A stretch of 64,000 nt of DNA from an uncultured Actinomycetes bacterium (GCA_963695975.1 CAVOIB010000002.1:589855-653854); one strand, 5' to 3'. Positions 32,104 to 42,682 are shown, counted from the stretch's first letter. Notes: generated by a model not told the origin, from the letters alone. A program made the numbers and translations.

Positions 32104-33026
32104 CCGCCGATCCCCTCCGCGGCCACGGCCAGCCACCGATCCACAGGACGTTCGGCCATCGCACGAGCGAGTCGGTCGAAGTGGTTGTCGGCGTACTCGA
32201 CGTAGTCGATATCCAGCGTGGAGAGTCCCTGCTGGGCCACTCCCCACATCGCCTCACGGAAGTCCGACATGATCCTCATCAGACCAAGCCTCGCGCGGTC
32301 GACCTCCGTCACCTCGCCGAAGTAGTGCTTAAGCATCCGCTCCTGCGCGTCCTCGGAGAGACCGTTGTTGATCGACAGGTTGCCCAGGTCGAAGAAGGGA
32401 TCGCCCATGCCGGCGTACTCGTAGTCCACGAGCCACAGTCGGCCTGTGTCCCGGATGAAGTTGGGCGCCAACAGGTCGTTGTGGCAGGGCCGGTCCTCCA
32501 TGGGCGAGGCCTTGAACGCCGTCTCGATGCGCTCCGCCACCGAGTGCGCTCGCGCGTACTCGGCCGGCACGGTCACACCGCGGTCCTCCGCGATGGCCCG
32601 GTACGACTCCTCGATGCGGAACGCGGAGAACGTCCAGGGGAGCTGGGGCCCTGCGTGGATCGCTCGCACGACGGCGACGGCGTCTCCGAGCGTCGGCTCG
32701 GACTCCAGTTCGCCCTCCGCCAGCGAGTTCCCCGGGACCCACTGCGTCACCAGACATCCGAGATCCGGCATGAAGGCGACGACCTCTGGGCCCACCCCGG
32801 CGTCAGCTGCCGCGGTCGCGGCCAGACGTTCCGTCGATCGGTCGATCCCTAGGAGCTGGGTCTCCTTGTCGGAGACCCGAACGAAGAACGCTCCGGCGTC
32901 GGTCTCGACCCTGAAGTTGCGGTTCGTGCGCCCCTCGGCGATCGGGGTGATGACCCGCCCGGAGCCGGCCAGTTCGGGCACAGCGTCCAGCGCGGCTCTG
33001 AGCGCGGGATCGACCTGCCCCTCCAC
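32100..33026 (-). CDS. Choline/ethanolamine-kinase / aminoglycoside-phosphotransferase-family protein
   Basis: Brenner motif HNDLLAPN and DYEYAGMGDPFFDLGN, 308 aa. Confidence 0.7.
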   Translation of the reverse strand: MEGQVDPALRAALDAVPELAGSGRVITPIAEGRTNRNFRVETDAGAFFVRVSDKETQLLGIDRSTERLAATAAADAGVGPEVVAFMPDLGCLVTQWVPGNSLAEGELESEPTLGDAVAVVRAIHAGPQLPWTFSAFRIEESYRAIAEDRGVTVPAEYARAHSVAERIETAFKASPMEDRPCHNDLLAPNFIRDTGRLWLVDYEYAGMGDPFFDLGNLSINNGLSEDAQERMLKHYFGEVTEVDRARLGLMRIMSDFREAMWGVAQQGLSTLDIDYVEYADNHFDRLARAMAERPVDRWLAVAAEGIGG

Positions 33027-33109
33027 GCGGCGGACGCTAGCCGCGAAGTTCGTTCCCGGTCAAGGATGAACGAACCTGATCGACCCCCCGCAAGAGCGGC
33101 GCGGGCTTG

Positions 33110-34453
33110 CTACGGGGGGCCTTGGATGTCCGTGATCGGGTCGAACTGGGGCGCTCCCGGCACGACGACTTCGAGCACGGTGGGGTCGGGGCCGGATCCC
33201 GGGATCTCCCGGAGCCGACGGACCGGAGAGAGCAACGGCGGCAGGACCGCGAACGTGTTCCCGATCGCGGCGATCCACAGCGTGGGTCGAAGGCCGATGG
33301 AGTTCCCGAGCGCTCCGCCGATGAGGGCCCCGAGAGGCATCGTGCCCCAGACCACGAACCGCATCGTGGCGTTCATCCGACCCAGCATGTCCTGCGGAGT
33401 GATCGCCTGCCGCAGGCTCACCTGGTTCACGTTGTAGATCACCGTGGCCAACCCATTCACGAAGCCGACCACGATGAACACGATGGTCGCATCCGACGCG
33501 GTCACGAGGGGATAGCCGAAGGTGAAAAGGGCGAACACGGCCATCGAGCCGATGATCGTCCATCCCACGCCGATCGATCGTGCCACGCGCTGCGATAAGA
33601 ACGCGCCGACGAGCAATCCGGAGTTGCCGATTGCGAATGCGAGCCCTAGCCGCCCTGGGTTCATGTCCAAGGAGCGGACCGCGAACAGCACCAGGATCGC
33701 CATGATCATCGAGAAGAACAGGTTCGAGATCGAGGTGGCGGCAGCGATCGGCCGAAGGAGCGGATGCCGAAGGACGTAGCGCAGCCCTTCGCCGATCTGG
33801 CGGCGCATCGCTCCGCGCTCGCGATCGACGCGTTCGGGTGGTTGTTCCTTCACCCGGATCCGCCAGATGAAAAGGGCCGAGCCCAGGTATGAGATCGCGT
33901 CGATCGAGATGGCGAACGGGGCCCGCACCAGCTCGACGAGGATCCCGGCGAGCCCAGGTCCCGCGAGCTGCGCCGCAGATCGGCTGATCTCGAGTTTCGC
34001 GTTCCCCTCGGTGAGTCGCGGCCGCGCCACCAAGGATGGCAGGAACGATTGGTACGCCACGTCGAAGAAGACCGTGCACATCCCGACGATGAACGCGACG
34101 ATGACGAGTTGGACCATCGAGAGCACGTCGAACGCGGCTGCGAGCGGGATCGTTGCCAGCGCCACCGCTCTGCCGAGATCTCCGGCGATGAGGATCGGGC
34201 GGCGCGAGAGACGATCGACCCAGACCCCGGCCGGGAGCCCGATCAACAAGAACGGCGCGAACTCGACGCTCGTGAGCACACCCAGCTGGAACGGGGTCGC
34301 GTCGAGCAACAGGATCGCGGTGAGCGGTAGGGCGAGGAACGTCACCTGCGTGCCCAGCTGGCTGATGCTCTCCGCGGTCCACAGCTTCATGAAGTCGCGA
34401 TGGCGCCACAGCGACGGCGCGCTGCGATCGCTGTTCGTCAGTGCTTGACCCAA
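33110..34453 (-). CDS. MFS transporter (EntS-like)
   Basis: Twelve TM segments, 447 aa. Confidence 0.8.
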   Translation of the reverse strand: MGQALTNSDRSAPSLWRHRDFMKLWTAESISQLGTQVTFLALPLTAILLLDATPFQLGVLTSVEFAPFLLIGLPAGVWVDRLSRRPILIAGDLGRAVALATIPLAAAFDVLSMVQLVIVAFIVGMCTVFFDVAYQSFLPSLVARPRLTEGNAKLEISRSAAQLAGPGLAGILVELVRAPFAISIDAISYLGSALFIWRIRVKEQPPERVDRERGAMRRQIGEGLRYVLRHPLLRPIAAATSISNLFFSMIMAILVLFAVRSLDMNPGRLGLAFAIGNSGLLVGAFLSQRVARSIGVGWTIIGSMAVFALFTFGYPLVTASDATIVFIVVGFVNGLATVIYNVNQVSLRQAITPQDMLGRMNATMRFVVWGTMPLGALIGGALGNSIGLRPTLWIAAIGNTFAVLPPLLSPVRRLREIPGSGPDPTVLEVVVPGAPQFDPITDIQGPP

Positions 34454-34591
34454 TGGCCGTGCTCCCTCAGACGAGTGCCGTCACGCCACCGCGACGGCAC
34501 GGGCAAGCCTAGCTGGTGCGGTCGGGCCCGATCATCGTCTGCCGATCCGGATGATGGGTGCCCTACGCTCGGGGGACCCCCGTCCGGTGGG

Positions 34592-34619
34592 TTGACAGCG
34601 GCTTGCCCGTCCGTAGACT
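34592..34619 (+). promoter_or_regulatory. SigA-type promoter TTGACA-N16-TAGACT of the ilv-leu operon
   Basis: Consensus -35 at 34592-97 and -10 at 34614-19. The predicted transcription start falls 1-3 nt before the leader-peptide ATG, making it leaderless. Confidence 0.55.
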
Positions 34620-34628
34620 GACTGGACC

Positions 34629-34679
34629 ATGTCGACAAGCAGGCTGTTCGAGCGCAGCGTCCTCGTACTTATCAGGTAG
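34629..34679 (+). CDS. ilv leader peptide MSTSRLFERSVLVLIR (16 aa)
   Basis: Run of five branched-chain codons, GTC CTC GTA CTT ATC, two of them rare in this genome. Followed by stop and the terminator structure below. Confidence 0.55.
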   Translation: MSTSRLFERSVLVLIR

Positions 34680-34718
34680 GCGCGGGTGGGCCCATGTGGG
34701 CCTGCGACCGCGCCGATA

Positions 34719-34745
34719 CCCCTCGCCATGCGGGGGGTTTTTCTT
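34719..34745 (+). terminator. Attenuator terminator: CCCCTCGC-cat-GCGGGGGG + UUUUUCUU
   Basis: 8-bp GC stem (one G-U pair) followed by the only long T-run in the region. An alternative hairpin GGCCCA-tg-TGGGCC lies at 34687-34704. Confidence 0.55.
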
Positions 34746-34796
34746 ACCCCGGTGCCACATGAACGGACCGGGAACGGTCCCAGGAGAGGAGAGCAC

Positions 34797-35121
34797 GATG
34801 CGGTACGAATTCGAGCGAGACGGAACGGTCGTCGCGAGCGTGCTGTGGGAAGGACCCGGCCAGGTGTCCGTCGAGGCCGCGGAGCCATCGGTGCGCGCGG
34901 TCGTCGACCGATACCTGTCGTCCGAGGTCGTCTATCTGGGCTCCGGGTTCGACTTCGGCGACGATCAACAGGACGACGTGCTGCAGATGCGCAGGCGCGA
35001 CTGGACGCCGTGGGAGTTCGAGCGCGCGTGCCGCAACCTGTCGCACCGGTTGTCCGCGACCGTTCGCCGCGTGGAAACCGGTCCCGTTGAGGCGCGCACC
35101 GAGGAGGTGGCCGCGGGATGA
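34797..35121 (+). CDS. Hypothetical 107-aa protein, first ORF of the ilvBNC operon
   Basis: Strong RBS GGAGAGGAG. Stop overlaps the ilvB ATG (ATGA). High GC3. No recognisable family. Confidence 0.55.
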
Positions 35122-36866
35122 AGGTAACCGGCGCCCAGGCGCTGTTCAGATCCCTCGAGGGCGAGGGTGTCGACATCGTGTTCGGCATCCCCGGAGGGGC
35201 GATCCTGCCCGCCTACGACCCGCTCATCGACTCGAGCGTGCGGCACGTGCTCTGCCGCCACGAGCAGGGAGCCGGACACGCCGCTGAGGGCTACGCCTGG
35301 GCCACGGGCAAGGTCGGTGTGGCCATGGCCACCTCGGGCCCGGGAGGCTGCAACCTGGTGACCGCGCTCGCCGACGCGAAGATGGACTCGGTGCCGATGG
35401 TCGCCATCACCGGCCAGGTCCCCACGCCGGTCGTCGGGAACGACGCGTTCCAAGAGGCCGACATCACCGGCATCACGATGCCGATCACCAAGCACAACAT
35501 CCTGGTCACCGACCCTGGCGACATCGCCGAGGCGATCCGCGAGGCCTTCCATATCGCGCGCACCGGTCGTCCCGGCCCGGTCCTCGTCGACCTCCCGAAG
35601 GACGTGCTCGTCAACGAGACGAACTGGAAGTGGCCCGAGAGCGTGAGCCTCCCCGGCTACAAGCCCACGACCAAGGGCAACCTGCGCCAGGTGGCCGAGG
35701 CGGCGAAGCTGATCCTCAAGGCCAAGCGCCCGGTGCTCTACGTGGGCGGCGGCGTGATCAAAGCGGAGGCCACGAAGGAGTTGATGACGCTCGCCACCCT
35801 CGGACATCTGCCGGTCGTCACGACGCTGATGGCACGCGGCGCGTTCCCAGACTCGAACGAGCTTTGCCTCGGCATGCCGGGGATGCACGGCAACTACACC
35901 GCGGTCACGGCCATGCAGAAGGCCGACCTGCTGGTAGCGCTCGGCGCGCGGTTCGATGATCGGGTCACCGGCAAGCTGGACGCGTTCGCGCCGGATGCGA
36001 CCGTGATCCACGTGGACATCGACCCGGCGGAGATCGGGAAGAACCGCGTGGCCGAGGTCCCGATCGTGGGTGACTGCAAGGACGTGATCGCGAAGCTCAC
36101 GGCAGAGCTCGCGAAGCGTCAGGACGAGGGGGGTGGCGTGCCGGACCGGAAGGCCTGGCTCGGGCAGCTCGCCGAGTGGAGGACGACGTACCCGTACCGG
36201 TACGACCAGCAGCCGGACGGTCCGCTGTTGCCGCAGTTCTGCATCGAGCGCCTCTACGAGGCGGCCGGCAGCGACACGATCGTCGTCTCCGGCGTGGGTC
36301 AGCACCAGATGTGGGCCTCGCAGTTCTGGCACTTCGAGCAGCCGCGACACTGGATCAACTCGGGCGGCTTGGGCACGATGGGCTTCGCCGTGCCCGCGGC
36401 GCTCGGCGCAGCGGCCGGTCAGCCGAAGAAGCGCGTGATCGCGATCGACGGCGACGGGTGCTTCCAGATGACGGCGCAGGAGCTCGCCACCTCGACCACC
36501 GAGAACATCCCGTTCGTCACGGCGATCATCAACAACGCCTACCTGGGGATGGTGCGGCAGTGGCAGGAGCTGTTCTACAACGAGCGCTACAGCCAGGTCT
36601 ACCTCTCTTACGACACGCCCGACTACGTGAAGCTGGCCGAGGCGTATGGCTGCGTCGGCCTGCGGGCCGAGCATCCTGACGAGGTCGACGCCGTGATCGA
36701 GAAGGCGCTGTCGGTCTCCGACCGCAGCGTGGTGATCGACTTCCGGGTTGACTCGAACGAGATGTGCTTCCCGATGGTGCCGGCAGGCGCGTCGAACGAC
36801 GACATCATCGTCGGCCCGGAGGGCCTGAAGCCGGCCAAGGACCCGGCGGAGGCACCCATCGCATGA
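35118..36866 (+). CDS. ilvB: Acetolactate synthase large subunit
   Basis: ThDP-enzyme signatures (GIPGGAILP; [16 protein letters not shown]...IDGDG), 582 aa. Confidence 0.9.
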
Positions 36867-37423
36867 GCCTCCACACGCTGTCCGTCCTCGTCGAAGACCG
36901 GCCGGGAGTCCTGACGCGGGTGGCGGGGTTGTTCGCGGCGCGTGGGTTCAACATCGACTCGCTCGCCGTGGGGGCGACTGAGAACCCGGGCATGTCGCGC
37001 ATGACGATCGTCGTGAACGTGGACAAGAAGCCCTTGGAGCAGGTCACCAAGCAGCTCAACAAGTTGATCCACGTGATCAAGATCCTGGAGCATGAGCCCT
37101 CCGAGACGGTTGAGCGCGAGCTGATGCTGGTCAAGGTCCGTGCGGAGGGCGAGACTCGGGCGCGGGTCCTGGAGTTCTGTCAGGTGTTCAGGGTTCGTGT
37201 CTCGGATGCGACGCACCAGACGCTCACGATCGAGGCGACGGGTTCTCCCGACAAGCTCTCCGCGCTGCTCGACCTCTTGGACGACTTCGGGATCGTTGAG
37301 TTAGCGCGCACGGGGCGCATCGCGCTCACGCGCGGCGACCGCGGGATCCGCGAGCGCGCGCTGAAGTCCACCCGGGCGGCGGGTGCCGAGGATCAACCGG
37401 ATTGGGACGGCGGCGGGGTGTGA
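36863..37423 (+). CDS. ilvN: Acetolactate synthase small (regulatory) subunit
   Basis: ACT domain [33 protein letters not shown]. Start overlaps the ilvB stop (ATGA). Confidence 0.85.
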
Positions 37424-37431
37424 AGCGGGTT

Positions 37432-37450
37432 CTAGTCTGAGATGGACTAG
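37432..37450. repeat. Palindrome CTAGTCTG-AGA-TGGACTAG (copy 2 of 3)
   Basis: In the 64-nt ilvN-ilvC intergenic spacer, 9 nt after the ilvN stop. Confidence 0.55.
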
Positions 37451-37487
37451 CACGACGGGCGAACGACCCAGGAGGGACGACGGAGCG

Positions 37488-38504
37488 ATGGCAACGATCT
37501 ACTACGAGAAGGACACCGATCCCAGCGCGTTGAAGGATCAGAAGATCGCGATCCTCGGGTTCGGCAGTCAGGGGCACGCCCACGCGCTGAACCTGCGCGA
37601 CTCGGGCCACGACGTGCGCGTCGGGCTCCGCGCGGGCTCGTCGTCCCGCCCGAAGACCGAGGAGACGGGGCTGCGTGTCCTGGATACCGCCGACGCCGTC
37701 CGCGAGGCCGACGTCATCATGGTCGTGGTCCCCGATACCTCGCAGGCGAAGGTCTACCGTGAGGACATCGAGCCGAACCTGGAGCCCGGCAACATGCTGA
37801 TGTTCGCGCACGGGTTCAACATCCGGTTCGAGACGATCGCGCCGCCCGAGGGCATCGACGTCACCATGATCGCCCCGAAGGGTCCCGGCCACTTGGTGCG
37901 GCGGACCTACGAGCAGGGGATCGGAACGCCGGCGTTGATCGCCGTCCACCAGGATGCGACGGGCAACGCAAAGGCGCGCGCGCTCGCGTACGCGCACGGG
38001 ATCGGCGCCGCCCGTGCCGGCGTCCTCGAGACCACGTTCAAAGAGGAGACCGAGACCGACCTGTTCGGTGAGCAAGCCGTGCTCTGTGGCGGAGCGTCCG
38101 CGCTCGTCCAAGCGGGGTTCGAGACGCTCGTCGCGGCCGGGTACCAGCCGGAGATCGCCTATTTCGAATGCCTGCACGAGCTGAAGTTGATCGTCGACCT
38201 GATCTACGAGGGCGGCCTTTCGTGGATGCGCTACTCGATCTCCGATACGGCTGAATACGGTGACTACACGCGTGGGCCGCGCGTGGTGAGCGACGAGACG
38301 CGCGCCGAGATGCGCCGGATCCTGGACGAGATCCAGGACGGCCGGTTCGCGAAGGAATGGATCGGCGAGGCCGAGGGCGGGTTCGACACCTTCCTCCGAC
38401 TTAGGAGCGAGGCGCGGACGTCCCAGCTCGAGGATGTGGGACGGGGACTGCGCCAGATGATGCCCTGGTTGGAGTCCGAGACGAAGGTGGTTCCCGATGA
38501 CTGA
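37488..38504 (+). CDS. ilvC: Ketol-acid reductoisomerase
   Basis: NADPH-binding [15 protein letters not shown], class I KARI, 338 aa. RBS GGAGGGA. Confidence 0.9.
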
Positions 38505-40059
38505 CGGCAACGTAGGCGATATAGACCCAGGCAACGACATCAGGATCTTCGACACGACCCTGCGGGACGGGGAGCAGGCTCCCGGGATCGCGCTCACGCG
38601 GGCGGAGAAGGTCGAGATCGCCGAGCAGCTCGCCCGGTTGAACGTCGACATCCTGGAGGCCGGGTTCCCGGTCTCTTCCGACGGGGAGTTCGATGCGGTC
38701 TCCGAGATCGCGTCCAGCGTGAAGGGCCCGGTGATCGCGGCGCTCGCGCGGACGACCGAGGGAGATATCCGCCGCGCGGCGGAAGCATTGAAGGGCGCCG
38801 AACGGTGGCGGATCCATACGTTCATCTCGACGAGCCAGATCCACATGCAGGACATGCTCCGCATGTCGCACCAACAGGTGCTGGACGCGATCCGGGACAA
38901 CGTCAAGCTCGCGGTCGGCTACACGGAGGACGTGGAGTTCAGCGCGCAGGACGCGACGCGGACCGAGCTCGACTTCCTGCTGGAGTGCTTCAGGGTCGCG
39001 GTCGATTGCGGCGCAACGACGATCAACGTTCCGGACACGGTGGGGTACGCAACGCCGACCGAGTTCGGGGAGTTGGTGCGGATCGTTCGCGAGGCTGCGC
39101 CCGACCACGTCGTGATATCGACGCACTGCCACAACGACCTCGGCTTGGCCGTGGCGAACTCGCTCGCGGGGATCGAGAACGGCGCGCGTCAGGTGGAGGT
39201 CGCGGTGAACGGGATCGGCGAGCGCGCGGGGAACTGCTCGCTCGAGGAGATCGCGATGATCGTACGCACGCGCGGACAGGCGCTCGGGGTGCGACACGAC
39301 CTGAACATCAAGGAGATCGTGCGCACCTCGCGCCTCGTGTCTATGACTACCGGCTACGGCGTCCAGCCGAACAAGGCGGTGGTCGGCGCCAGCGCGTTCG
39401 CGCACGAGAGCGGCATCCATCAGCACGGGGTGCTGAGCAACGCCGCCACCTACGAGATCATGGATCCGCTCGAGATCGGCTTGGAAGGCAACCGCCTGGT
39501 CCTCGGCAAACATAGCGGGAGGCACGCGTTCGTCGACGCGCTGGACAAGCTGGGGCTCGCTGTTGACCCCGAACACGTGGACCGTGCGTTCGCACGGTTC
39601 AAGGACCTGGCCGACCGCAAGATCCAGATCACCGATCAGGACCTGGAGGCCATCGTTGGCGAGGAGCGCGGCGCCACAGAGGAGGGCCTTCTCGTGCTCG
39701 AATCGCTCCAGGTGGGCGGGGGAACTCATCTCTCGCCGAGCGCGACGGTCCGGCTCCGCCGGGGCGAGGAACTGATCGAGGAGTCGGCGTTCGGCGACGG
39801 CATGATCGACGCCGCGTGCGGGGCGATCCAGCGCGCCGCCGGTGTGGACGCTCGGCTCATCATGTTCAACGTCTCGTCGGTGACCGGCGGCTCCGACGCG
39901 CTCGGCGATGTGGTCGTCCAGCTCGACGTCGACGGCCGGCGCGTGACGGGTCGCGGTGTGTCGGTCGACGTGGTGGAGGCGAGCGCGCGCGCGTACCTCG
40001 CCGCGATCAACCGAGCTCTGCAGGTCTCGTCCGGCCGTGACGACGAGGTCCGTCCGTGA
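38497..40059 (+). CDS. leuA: 2-isopropylmalate synthase
   Basis: HMGL-like TIM barrel ([10 protein letters not shown]; [13 protein letters not shown]) plus a C-terminal LeuA dimerisation/regulatory domain, 520 aa. Start overlaps the ilvC stop. Confidence 0.85.
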
Positions 40060-41111
40060 CATACAGGATCGGGGTCATCCCCGGCGACGGGACCGGCCCC
40101 GAGGTCGTTCGCGAAGGGCTGAAGGTGCTCGACGCCGTCAAGGGCGTGGAGGGCTTCGACGTCGAGCTGGTCGAGTTCGACCTGGGCGGCGAGCGCTACC
40201 TGCGGACGGGGGACACGCTCCCCGACGACGAGCTCGCCCGGCTCCGTGAGATGCACGCCCTATTGCTGGGCGCCGTGGGGCATCCGGACGTCAGGCCGGG
40301 GATCCTGGAGCGGGAGCTGTTGCTGCGCGCACGGTTCGAGCTTGACCAGTACGTGAACCTCCGGCCGGTGATCCGCTACCCGGGCGTCGAGACGCTCGTG
40401 CCGTCACACACGGAGGACGACGTGAACATGGTGGTCGTCCGCGAGAACAGTGAGGGCCTCTACAGCGGGGCGGGCGGGTTCCACCGCAAGGGCACTCCCC
40501 ATGAGGTCGCCGTGCAGGAGTCGATCAACACCCGCCACGGCGTGGAGCGGATCGTCCGCTACGCGTTCGAACTCGCGATGCGCCCGGAGCGCCGCCGGAA
40601 GCTCACGCTCGTTCACAAGACGAACGTACTGACGTTCGCCGGCGATCTGTACCAGCGCGTGGTGGACGAGGTCGCCGCTGAATATCCGGAGGTGACGGCC
40701 GACTATGCGCACGTCGACGCCGCGTGCATCTACTTCCTGGATCAGCCGAGCCGGTTCGACGTGATCGTCACCGATAACATCTTCGGGGACATCATCACGG
40801 ACCTCGGAGCGATGATCCAGGGCGGCATGGGGGTCGCGGCCGGCGGCAACATCAACCCCGACGGCGTGAGCATGTTCGAGCCGATCGGCGGAACGGCGCC
40901 CGACCACGCCGGGAAGGCCACGATCAACCCGCTCGCGGCGATCGGCGCTGTTCGGCTGCTGCTGCTGCAGCTCGGCGAGGCGAATGCCGCCGGGCGCATC
41001 GACACGGGCATCCGGTTCGCGGCGTCGAAGATGTCGTCGATGCGGGCCGGTGAGATGGGGTACTCGACCCCGGAGGTCGGCGATCTCGTGGTGGAGGGAG
41101 CGACGGGATGA
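40056..41111 (+). CDS. leuB: 3-isopropylmalate dehydrogenase
   Basis: Isocitrate/IPM dehydrogenase signature NLFGDIITDLGA. GTG start overlaps the leuA stop. Confidence 0.9.
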   Translation: MTYRIGVIPGDGTGPEVVREGLKVLDAVKGVEGFDVELVEFDLGGERYLRTGDTLPDDELARLREMHALLLGAVGHPDVRPGILERELLLRARFELDQYVNLRPVIRYPGVETLVPSHTEDDVNMVVVRENSEGLYSGAGGFHRKGTPHEVAVQESINTRHGVERIVRYAFELAMRPERRRKLTLVHKTNVLTFAGDLYQRVVDEVAAEYPEVTADYAHVDAACIYFLDQPSRFDVIVTDNIFGDIITDLGAMIQGGMGVAAGGNINPDGVSMFEPIGGTAPDHAGKATINPLAAIGAVRLLLLQLGEANAAGRIDTGIRFAASKMSSMRAGEMGYSTPEVGDLVVEGATG

Positions 41112-42682
41112 AGGTCGAGCTCTACGACACCACGCTCCGCGACGGCGCCCAGGGCACGGGCCTGTCGTACTCGATCGAGGACCGCCTGCGGATCCTCCAC
41201 AAGATCGACCAGCTCGGTGTGCCGTACATCGAGGGCGGCTGGCCGGGCGCGAACCCGCGCGATACCGAGTTCTTCAAGCTCGCCACGAAGGAGACCCTGC
41301 AACACGCGGCGCTGACCTCGTTCGGGATGACGCGCAAGGCAGGTGAGCGCGCCGAGGACAGCGCGGTGCTCCGCGAGCTGCTCGACACCGGGACGGAGGT
41401 CGTCTGCCTGGTCGGCAAGTCCTGGGACCTGCACGTGACCGAGGCCCTCCGCACGGATCTCGACGAGGGCGTCGCCATGGTGCGGGACTCGATCGCGTTC
41501 CTCCGTGCGCAGGGCAGGCGGGTGTTCTTCGACGCGGAGCACTTCTTCGACGGCTACCGGAGCGATCCGGCGTTCGCGATGCGAGTGATCGAGGCGGCAC
41601 AGGAAGCCGGTGCCGAGCGGCTGGTCCTGTGCGACACGAACGGCGGCATGCTGCCGTTCGACGTGGCGCGGATCGTGGACGAGGTCGGCACGAGCGTCGA
41701 GACCCCACTCGGGATCCACGTGCACAACGATGCGGGGTGCGCGGTGGCCAACTCGCTCATCGCGGTGGAACACGGGGCCTTCCAGGTCCAAGGCGTGGTG
41801 AACGGCTACGGGGAGCGGACCGGCAACGCCGACCTGATCCCGGTCGCGGCGAACCTCGTGCTCAAGATGGGCGCGGACTGCCTTCCCGAGGGCGCTGTCG
41901 AGAGACTCACGGAGGTCGCGCACTACGTCGCCGAGGTGGCGAACGTGGCGCCCGACTCACACCAGCCCTACGCCGGGCGCTACGCGTTCACGCACAAGGC
42001 CGGGCTCCACGCCAGCGGCCTGGCGCGCCTGGAGGAGGCCTACGAACACGTGCCGCCGTCATCGGTCGGGAATCGCCGCGGCGTGGTGGCGAGCGACCTG
42101 GGCGGGGCGGCCACCCTCCAGATGAAGGCCGACGAGTTCGGCATCGAGGTGGCAGTTACCACGATCCCGGCGATCCTCACGGAGCTGAAGGAGCGCGAGT
42201 CCCGCGGCTACACGTTCGAGGTGGCCGACGCGTCGCTCGAGCTCCTGATGCGTCACGCGAGCGGGTGGCGGCAGCCGTTCTTCCGGATCGAGAGCTTCCG
42301 CGTGCATGTCGAGCAGCGTATGGACGATCAGGAAGAGGCGCTCGCCGAGGCCACCGTGAAGGTCATCACGAAGGGCACCCGTCACGTGGAGAGCGCCGAG
42401 GGTCACGGACCGGTGGGCGCGTTGGACAACGCTCTCCGCAAGGCGCTTTCGAACGAGTACCCAGCGCTCGACGACATGACGCTCGAGGACTACCGCGTCC
42501 GCGTGCTCGACGAGACCGTCGGCACGGGCGCGACGGTACGCGTGCTGATCGACACCTCGAACGGCGAGCGCGAATGGACCACCGTCGGGGTGTCGGAGAA
42601 CATCATCGAGGCGTCCTGGGAGGCGCTGGTCGACGCGTACCTCTACGGTCTCCTCCATCCTCGGGAGGACATCGAGGCGTGA
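41108..42682 (+). CDS. cimA: Second LeuA-family synthase, citramalate-synthase (CimA)-like
   Basis: 524 aa with the same HMGL barrel (YDTTLRDGAQ; HVHNDAGCAVANS) and a C-terminal LeuA_dimer-type domain. The architecture is typical of CimA-clade paralogs. Start overlaps the leuB stop. Confidence 0.7.
   Translation: MKVELYDTTLRDGAQGTGLSYSIEDRLRILHKIDQLGVPYIEGGWPGANPRDTEFFKLATKETLQHAALTSFGMTRKAGERAEDSAVLRELLDTGTEVVCLVGKSWDLHVTEALRTDLDEGVAMVRDSIAFLRAQGRRVFFDAEHFFDGYRSDPAFAMRVIEAAQEAGAERLVLCDTNGGMLPFDVARIVDEVGTSVETPLGIHVHNDAGCAVANSLIAVEHGAFQVQGVVNGYGERTGNADLIPVAANLVLKMGADCLPEGAVERLTEVAHYVAEVANVAPDSHQPYAGRYAFTHKAGLHASGLARLEEAYEHVPPSSVGNRRGVVASDLGGAATLQMKADEFGIEVAVTTIPAILTELKERESRGYTFEVADASLELLMRHASGWRQPFFRIESFRVHVEQRMDDQEEALAEATVKVITKGTRHVESAEGHGPVGALDNALRKALSNEYPALDDMTLEDYRVRVLDETVGTGATVRVLIDTSNGEREWTTVGVSENIIEASWEALVDAYLYGLLHPREDIEA

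Follow-up and report, generated by a model that had tools for sequence, protein, structure and literature searches.

What governs branched-chain amino acid synthesis in an uncultured Actinomycetes bacterium, and by what route could a ribosome on a short leader peptide act on a terminator that lies beyond it? The question is raised by a locus within a 64,000-nucleotide (nt) stretch of DNA (GCA_963695975.1 CAVOIB010000002.1:589855-653854; the window, with positions counted from its first letter), for which an earlier note, generated by a model from the sequence, had proposed a complete ilv attenuator at 34592-34796. Our analysis of the window and its relatives indicates a ribosome-mediated transcription attenuator of the actinobacterial ilvL/ilvB type that would control the genes ORF107-ilvB-ilvN-ilvC-leuA-leuB-cimA, a reading to which we assign a probability of roughly 0.85. 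The coordinates of its parts and of the genes behind it are collected in Table 1.

An invariant run of branched-chain codons near the end of the leader peptide

The leader open reading frame (ORF) begins with the ATG at 34629, comprises 16 codons (MSTSRLFERSVLVLIR) and ends with the TAG at 34677-34679; as the earlier note had recognized, it contains five consecutive branched-chain codons, GTC CTC GTA CTT ATC, which occupy 34659-34673. The proposal that two of these codons are rare is borne out by codon usage in the 38 ORFs of the window, where GTA accounts for 3.5% of the Val codons and CTT for 4.5% of the Leu codons; CTC (47%) and ATC (98.5%) are commoner.

One genome per species was scanned with IlvB, yielding 80 loci from metagenome-assembled genomes of uncultured Actinomycetota. 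A homologue of ORF107 lies directly ahead of ilvB in 46 of these loci, and all 46, together with one further locus (L034), carry an upstream ORF ending in xLVLI-x-stop and a T run about 57 nt past that stop. A 20-base motif of the element, CTCGTACTTATYNNNTAGGCGCG, occurs once in the window (0 expected), and a scan of metagenomes with its exact sequence returned at least 120 contigs containing 88 further distinct elements, with ORF107 downstream in 74 of 77; judged by their sources, the contigs appear to be mostly from soil. The comparative set comprised 136 sequences of this lineage (127 distinct) and 18 loci of a second, Acidimicrobiia-type clade.

The end of the peptide, LVLI-x-UAG, is constant in all 48 genome loci and in the 88 distinct metagenome elements, with exactly one sense codon between the LVLI run and the stop in 48/48 loci, and the N-terminal part varies in sequence and length (peptides of 15-30 amino acids (aa)). 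Conservation reaches the level of the nucleotide: the block CUCGUACUUAY NNN UAGGCGCG is unvarying across relatives, synonymous sites included, and CTCGTACTTAT(C/T)NNNTAGGCGCG is identical in 48 of 48 sequences, again at synonymous sites, the C or T being the last base of the Ile codon.

Covariation defines two adjacent hairpins

Downstream of the sensing codons, two hairpins follow one another closely, termed here hairpin A and terminator T. Hairpin A begins 0 to 3 nt from the stop in 66 of 66 loci of the two clades and consists of an outer stem, GGCGCGG/CCGCGCC, and a variable inner stem. The six stop-proximal pairs (GGCGCG/CGCGCC) are essentially invariant, a G-U pair occurring in one sequence; compensatory changes are seen at the seventh pair and in the inner stem. 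In the linker that follows, the GA is conserved in at least 90% of the alignment of 48 genome sequences.

The stem of T spans 34718-34738 and runs into TTTTTCTT up to 34745; its nine base pairs (seven G-C, one G-U and one A-U) correct the count of eight in the earlier note, which had otherwise placed a GC hairpin with a U tract properly. Compensatory changes were found at four of eight pairs of T, for example from U-A to C-G in 11 sequences. The T run is the sole run of four or more T within the 330 nt that precede the next gene, in keeping with the claim that no other long T run lies nearby. Among the relatives, a run of 4-8 T situated 54-64 nt past the stop is present in 83 of the 88 metagenome elements, and a T run is found in all 48 genome loci.

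In the 48-sequence alignment, the positions of A and T were paired in 95.6% of cases, with compensatory changes at nine pairs; none of 500 shuffles reached the observed values, and slid controls remained at or below 55%. Furthermore, when all column pairs of the 127 distinct sequences were scanned blindly for covariation, the pairs of T and A ranked highest and no further helix emerged, a single isolated off-structure pair also scoring high. As G-U pairs occur, the structure was assigned to the RNA of the + strand. Position 34673, the third base of the Ile codon (C/T), and 34718, the first base of the terminator (G/A), form a standard pair in 86% of the 127 sequences; this isolated pair, with its weak association, is probably phylogenetic noise.

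The Acidimicrobiia-type loci (L046-L080, for instance L063, L069, L071 and L074) lack ORF107 and carry the attenuator directly ahead of ilvB. Their leaders end in runs such as LLVVVT, ILVLT or VLVVP with a nearly invariant CUC GUA, the -10 hexamer lies about 9 nt ahead of the ATG, and usually one codon separates the run from the stop, which is UAG in 17 of 18 loci. A strong hairpin starts from the stop codon and is followed, after a linker of 0-6 nt, by a separate GC hairpin and a U run. Since the same plan recurs in these genomes, the design spans at least two deeply separated lineages. Judged by these comparisons, the element is a genuine and strongly conserved control element, and the sequence data support a leader-peptide attenuator with Val/Leu/Ile sensing codons and an intrinsic terminator ahead of the ilv genes.

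Two constant features of the element stand beside this architecture. The leader stop is UAG in 48/48 loci as well as in 17/18 of the distant loci, and the ORFs of the window end in TGA 24 times and in TAG 14 times; the G of the UAG is the first paired base of hairpin A, and a requirement for release factor 1 or a slow termination context offers an alternative reason for its constancy. Past the terminator, a conserved block, YUACCC(C), comes immediately behind the U tract, and a C run about 4 nt beyond the U run is also seen in Acidimicrobiia-type loci.

The leader is predicted to be translated from a leaderless transcript

The promoter described in the earlier note, TTGACA-N16-TAGACT with the -10 hexamer ending 9 nt ahead of the ATG, was recovered at its proposed coordinates. 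It has the form of a sigma-70 promoter and is the sole promoter-like match in 33000-39000, agreeing at 10 of 12 positions, compared with a mean of 0.4 hits in shuffled sequence. A -35 hexamer of the form TTGAC(A/G) occupies the equivalent place in 45 of the 48 genome loci of relatives; in these 45 loci the -10 hexamer reads TACACT or TAGACT in 33, the spacer is 16 nt in 35, and the gap between the -10 hexamer and the ATG is 9 nt in 43, as in the window.

A search pattern that left the reading frame free (TTGAC(A/G)-N15-19-NANNNT-N8-10-ATG) was likewise present in 45/48 genome loci, and the ATG so placed, 9-10 nt past the -10 hexamer, was in frame with LVLI without a single internal stop in 45 of 45 genome loci; the frame agreed in 71 of 72 metagenome loci. 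The tetranucleotide GACC precedes the leader ATG in 28/45 loci. Given that the 9-nt gap is fixed and GACC is conserved, we infer that transcription starts within 34626-34629, and the 5′ untranslated region would accordingly measure 0-3 nt, too short for a Shine-Dalgarno site.

The earlier note had regarded such a start as an unusual variant of attenuation. Leaderless ilvB leaders have, however, already been documented in Corynebacterium glutamicum, where transcription starts 1 nt from the AUG and the control codons CUU and GUA are conserved (PMC11857589), and in Streptomyces lividans, whose ilvL is leaderless (PMC8079986). In Mycobacterium tuberculosis the corresponding upstream ORF is listed as 'isolated', not leaderless, in one study (bioRxiv 10.1101/2022.06.01.494293). 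A leaderless start is thus typical of actinobacterial ilvB leaders rather than unusual, and the type is already known; what the present element would add is the extension of leaderless ilvL-type attenuators with rare GUA/CUU codons to abundant uncultured soil Actinomycetota.

Comparison with known attenuators

In the enterobacterial ilvBN, ilvGMEDA, leu and trp leaders, stalling on codons for the end product controls an intrinsic terminator. Regulatory codons are far more numerous in these leaders, which also possess a Shine-Dalgarno site and 1:2, 2:3 and 3:4 pairings that clearly overlap; the leader in the window differs from them in having no room for a Shine-Dalgarno site.

Closer counterparts are found among the actinobacteria. 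The ilvBNC leader of C. glutamicum (IlvL, MTIIRLVVVTARRLP; PMC11857589) resembles the window in starting at or next to the AUG (a start predicted for the window), in its rare codons CUU and GUA, in the GC hairpin ahead of the operon (the U run being that of the window, as the 113-nt C. glutamicum sequence ends at the 3′ arm of the hairpin) and in an overlap of about 3 nt between antiterminator and terminator, comparable to the one predicted for the window through an extension of hairpin A. It differs in having six additional codons after its Val run, an antiterminator whose 5′ arm is contained in the ORF, and ilvB as the directly following gene with no ORF107 between; beyond the codons, it has no sequence homology to the window.

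For M. tuberculosis, an upstream ORF with LVVI has been validated: replacement of LVVI by AAAA abolishes induction, the attenuated transcript measures about 120 nt, and GUA stands out as a marked regulatory codon (PMC13236596). Compared by description, ilvB1NC shares with the window four consecutive branched-chain codons including GUA, an attenuated transcript of similar length (about 115-120 nt predicted for the window), and the logic, proposed and tested for M. tuberculosis, by which a ribosome at the stop masks an anti-terminator that starts right past the stop, while a stalled ribosome lets it form; it differs in its stop, UGA, and in a model with mutually exclusive hairpins. The ilvL leader of S. 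lividans and S. coelicolor (MRTRILVLGKRVG; PMC8079986, PMC1262725) is similarly leaderless, with an ILVL run and with hairpins and a U-rich stretch upstream of ilvBHC, and differs in having five codons past the run.

A survey of 2005 listed 'leader peptides with terminators' upstream of actinobacterial ilvB and described their mode of action as unclear (PMC1262725). The architecture found here is unusually clean and minimal: the sensing codons and a single additional codon precede the UAG, hairpin A follows, and 0-6 nt of linker separate it from the terminator, with no conserved competing pairing. It bears on the question, posed in that survey, of how ilvB leaders of actinobacteria function when attenuator components appear to be missing from them, and offers a compact system for probing such leaders.

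No Rfam family matched at its gathering score anywhere in the window, and around the element no relevant family appeared at E≤10, the Leu, Thr, His and Trp leaders included. A T-box or metabolite riboswitch was considered and rejected, as Rfam gave no match for either and only two simple hairpins are conserved.

Proposed mechanism

The leader mRNA would start at the AUG or within 3 nt of it, and its translation would proceed with no Shine-Dalgarno site. A shortage of charged Leu-, Val- or Ile-tRNA is expected to stall the ribosome at the rare codons GUA and CUU, or else at CUC or AUY; with the front of the ribosome still short of hairpin A, A would stay folded and RNA polymerase would continue past T into the operon. 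With an ample supply of these tRNAs, a ribosome reaching the UAG would draw 6-11 of the 15 nt in the 5′ strand of A into its mRNA channel; with A destroyed, T would act and a transcript of about 115-120 nt, ending near 34742-34745, would be released. Hairpin A would in this way be the functional equivalent of an antiterminator.

Structured mRNA can lie outside the ribosome from about 7-12 nt past the first base of the A-site codon. With these footprint sizes, hairpin A should be intact when CUC, GUA or CUU is in the A site, and a stall at AUC would touch at most its first few pairs. How an intact A then keeps T from working is the least certain step of the scheme: it may hinder the completion of T by proximity. 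Because A and T share no bases across the family, we favour their adjacency as the common factor, and the alignments suggest hindrance of this kind.

Evaluation of alternative switches

Several observations weigh against the attenuator reading, most of them arising from our search for a switch between the two hairpins. In an equilibrium test, the RNA was masked behind a ribosome placed at each codon, for 47 and then for 126+18 sequences; in the larger set, the bottom three base pairs of T retained a mean probability of 0.93-0.98 wherever the ribosome stood. The validated C. glutamicum leader (sequence taken from the supplement of PMC11857589) likewise shows no switch in this test, and the silence is weak evidence because the method is blind to a switch in that element too. 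After this control a kinetic test was added, in which the folded RNA ended before the 3′ arm of the terminator. For C. glutamicum, the base of the terminator was sequestered (0.75-0.97) with a stall at CUU or at the first two GUA codons and released (0.13-0.25) later in the ORF. In the window family, by contrast, the 5′ arm of the terminator was largely unpaired when the ribosome was stalled (mean pairing of 0.25-0.34), and its base was paired at P≥0.7 in at most 10% of 126 sequences; given this difference, the usual competing-hairpin logic is not visible in the family. Nor is the extension of hairpin A conserved: it is 65% pairable and showed no covariation. Beyond the folding tests, codon mutations in the S. 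coelicolor ilvB leader were reportedly without effect (as cited in PMC1262725), so that the presence of such elements does not guarantee classical behaviour, and for this uncultured lineage the transcription start, the attenuated transcript and the physiological response are predictions.

The earlier note had envisaged an upstream hairpin that excludes the terminator, to be recognized by folding. The upstream hairpin is real, whereas mutual exclusion is not apparent, T being predicted at every ribosome position; folding reveals a weak 3-nt overlap in the window that does not hold family-wide. A classical switch, in which A or its extension shares bases with T and the two are mutually exclusive, as in trp or in C. 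glutamicum ilvBNC, draws its case from this overlap. Pairing of GGUA (34675-78) with UACC (34717-20) stacks on A, adds -4.5 kcal/mol and takes the bottom three nucleotides of T, and the extended A with a 6-bp terminator lies only 4.3 kcal/mol above A with the full terminator. In the kinetic test of the window, pairing of the terminator base reached a P of about 0.72 solely when the ribosome stalled at CUC or GUA and was about 0.09 once it stood at the stop, as the correct logic would have it; C. glutamicum, too, works with an overlap of just 3 nt (PMC11857589). Set against this, the extension hangs on the variable last sense codon, its pairing in relatives is as poor as described above, few sequences sequester the terminator base in stalls, and the blind scan found no extra helix; as the extension is not conserved, it is not the family-wide mechanism.

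Other pairings fared no better. The 5′ strand of A and the 5′ arm of T were pairable in 80% of cases compared with 73% for the slid control, with zero compensatory changes; the 3′ strand of A and the 3′ arm of T would compete in only about 4 of 47 loci; and pairing of the codon block or the UAG with the post-terminator YUACCC, assessed by inspection, gave just 3-6 bp and was inconsistent. Hairpin A and T themselves have zero bases in common. We regard a classical switch as possible but doubtful.

If bases are not exchanged, an intact A, standing 0-6 nt from the base of T, could instead block the bottom pairs of T in the exit channel of RNA polymerase or act on the polymerase itself; A would be held at the entry of the stalled ribosome, and its melting by a ribosome at the UAG would lift the block. 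The linker of 0-6 nt in 66/66 loci of two clades, the invariantly G-C outer stem of A and the start of A at the stop codon, whereby geometry and footprint sizes would allow only a terminating ribosome to melt it, are consistent with such an arrangement, as is the lack of a conserved competing pairing in tests that do reveal one in C. glutamicum. The case is nonetheless purely inferential, upstream hairpins beside ordinary terminators are common, and the equilibrium test shows no switch in the validated C. glutamicum leader either. To our knowledge there is no precedent for an antiterminator of this type, and a literature search on upstream hairpins that affect terminators returned nothing useful. 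We treat the arrangement as a tentative option, with chances well below even; the broader proposal that a ribosome-sensed hairpin suppresses a terminator without competing for its bases, as a non-competitive antiterminator acting through 0-6 nt adjacency both here and in the Acidimicrobiia-type relatives, is unlikely, if worth stating.

Hairpin A might alternatively serve to pause and synchronize the polymerase, with T a constitutive partial terminator and control exerted elsewhere, for example by a protein (possibly ORF107) with the conserved RNA or DNA blocks as its binding sites. The hairpin-pause consensus of RNA polymerase, G(-10)Y(-1)G(+1), is matched by the linker G34715 together with C34724/G34725, the 3′ end of A being at -11; such a match would put a hairpin-stabilized pause ahead of the synthesis of the 3′ arm of the terminator. 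The invariant outer stem of A and the conserved YUACCCC also find no explanation in base pairing, and ORF107 always accompanies this form of the element. This account leaves unexplained why invariant rare branched-chain codons stand one codon before the stop and why the stop codon abuts hairpin A at a fixed place; moreover, Acidimicrobiia-type loci share the architecture without ORF107, and ORF107 shows no known RNA-binding fold. We consider it improbable. The distant, Acidimicrobiia-type clade does not conserve the linker G.

Translational attenuation, in which a stall would unmask the Shine-Dalgarno site of ORF107, could appeal to a hairpin at 34748-34773 (-13.9 kcal/mol) between T and that site. 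This hairpin is not conserved, the region from the U tract to the Shine-Dalgarno site varies in sequence and in length (33 to 148 nt), and a conserved hairpin with a U tract behind it is the hallmark of intrinsic termination; we consider this explanation very improbable. A second hairpin in the same interval, at 34766-34781, is retained, like the first, in the nearest relatives only (L001, L002 and L042).

Genes behind the attenuator

The transcription attenuator would front seven genes, which appear to be translationally coupled as ORF107-ilvB-ilvN-ilvC-leuA-leuB-cimA behind a single regulatory element (Table 1). The stops and starts of leuA, leuB and cimA overlap, and the apparent super-operon runs to 42682. 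The predicted operon covers all three branched-chain amino acids; one leader thus stands before genes for Val, Leu and Ile (the last via citramalate), which fits a peptide sensing all three.

Table 1. Positions of the regulatory element and of the downstream genes in the window.
Feature	Position	Strand	Basis or remark
-35 hexamer TTGACA	34592-34597	+	Promoter scan of the window
-10 hexamer TAGACT	34614-34619	+	16-nt spacer from the -35 hexamer
Predicted transcription start region ACCA	34626-34629	+	Fixed 9-nt gap and GACC ahead of the ATG
Leader peptide ORF (ilvL-like), MSTSRLFERSVLVLIR + TAG	34629-34679	+	Sequence and frame conservation in relatives
Sensing codons CUC GUA CUU AUC (Leu-Val-Leu-Ile)	34662-34673	+	Near-invariant bases in 48 genome sequences
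Hairpin A	34679-34714	+	-28.9 kcal/mol; begins at the G of the stop codon
Window-specific extension of hairpin A, GGUA 34675-78 : UACC 34717-20	34675-34720	+	Folding
Linker GAU between hairpin A and terminator	34715-34717	+	Linker of 0-6 nt in 66/66 loci, two clades
Terminator stem-loop ACCCCUCGC-CAU-GCGGGGGGU	34718-34738	+	-15.6 kcal/mol; covariation
U tract UUUUUCUU	34738-34745	+	Predicted end of the attenuated transcript, about 114-120 nt
Post-terminator element CUUACCCC, family consensus YUACCCC	34743-34750	+	Conserved in relatives (L001-L045)
Shine-Dalgarno region AGGAGAGGAGAG of the first structural gene	34782-34793	+	GGAG-rich stretch ahead of the ATG in all relatives
ORF107, conserved 107-aa protein	34798-35121	+	Stop overlaps the ilvB start (ATGA)
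ilvB, acetolactate synthase large subunit	35118-36866	+	Pfam TPP_enzyme_N/M/C
ilvN, acetolactate synthase small subunit	36863-37423	+	Pfam ALS_ss_C and ACT
ilvC, ketol-acid reductoisomerase	37489-38504	+	Pfam KARI_N, KARI_C; ATG after AGGAGGG taken as start
leuA	38497-40059	+	NCBIfam 2-isopropylmalate synthase, 705 bits, above cut-off
leuB	40056-41111	+	NCBIfam 3-isopropylmalate dehydrogenase, 495 bits, above cut-off
cimA	41108-42682	+	NCBIfam citramalate synthase, 664 bits, above cut-off

The gene immediately downstream of the element is not ilvB, as the earlier note had assumed: ORF107, with a strong Shine-Dalgarno site and its ATG at 34798, comes first, and ilvB starts at 35118. ORF107 gave no match in Pfam or NCBIfam, its AlphaFold model (mean predicted local distance difference test score of 70) showed no significant fold match, and all of its 532 homologues are annotated as hypothetical. 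The comparison flags this widespread 107-aa protein as putatively co-regulated with ilvB and, as a secondary possibility, the first cistron may encode a new protein tied to the branched-chain amino acid pathway. No tRNA was found when the whole window was scanned for such genes. Upstream of the leader, a major facilitator superfamily (MFS) transporter gene lies on the opposite strand.

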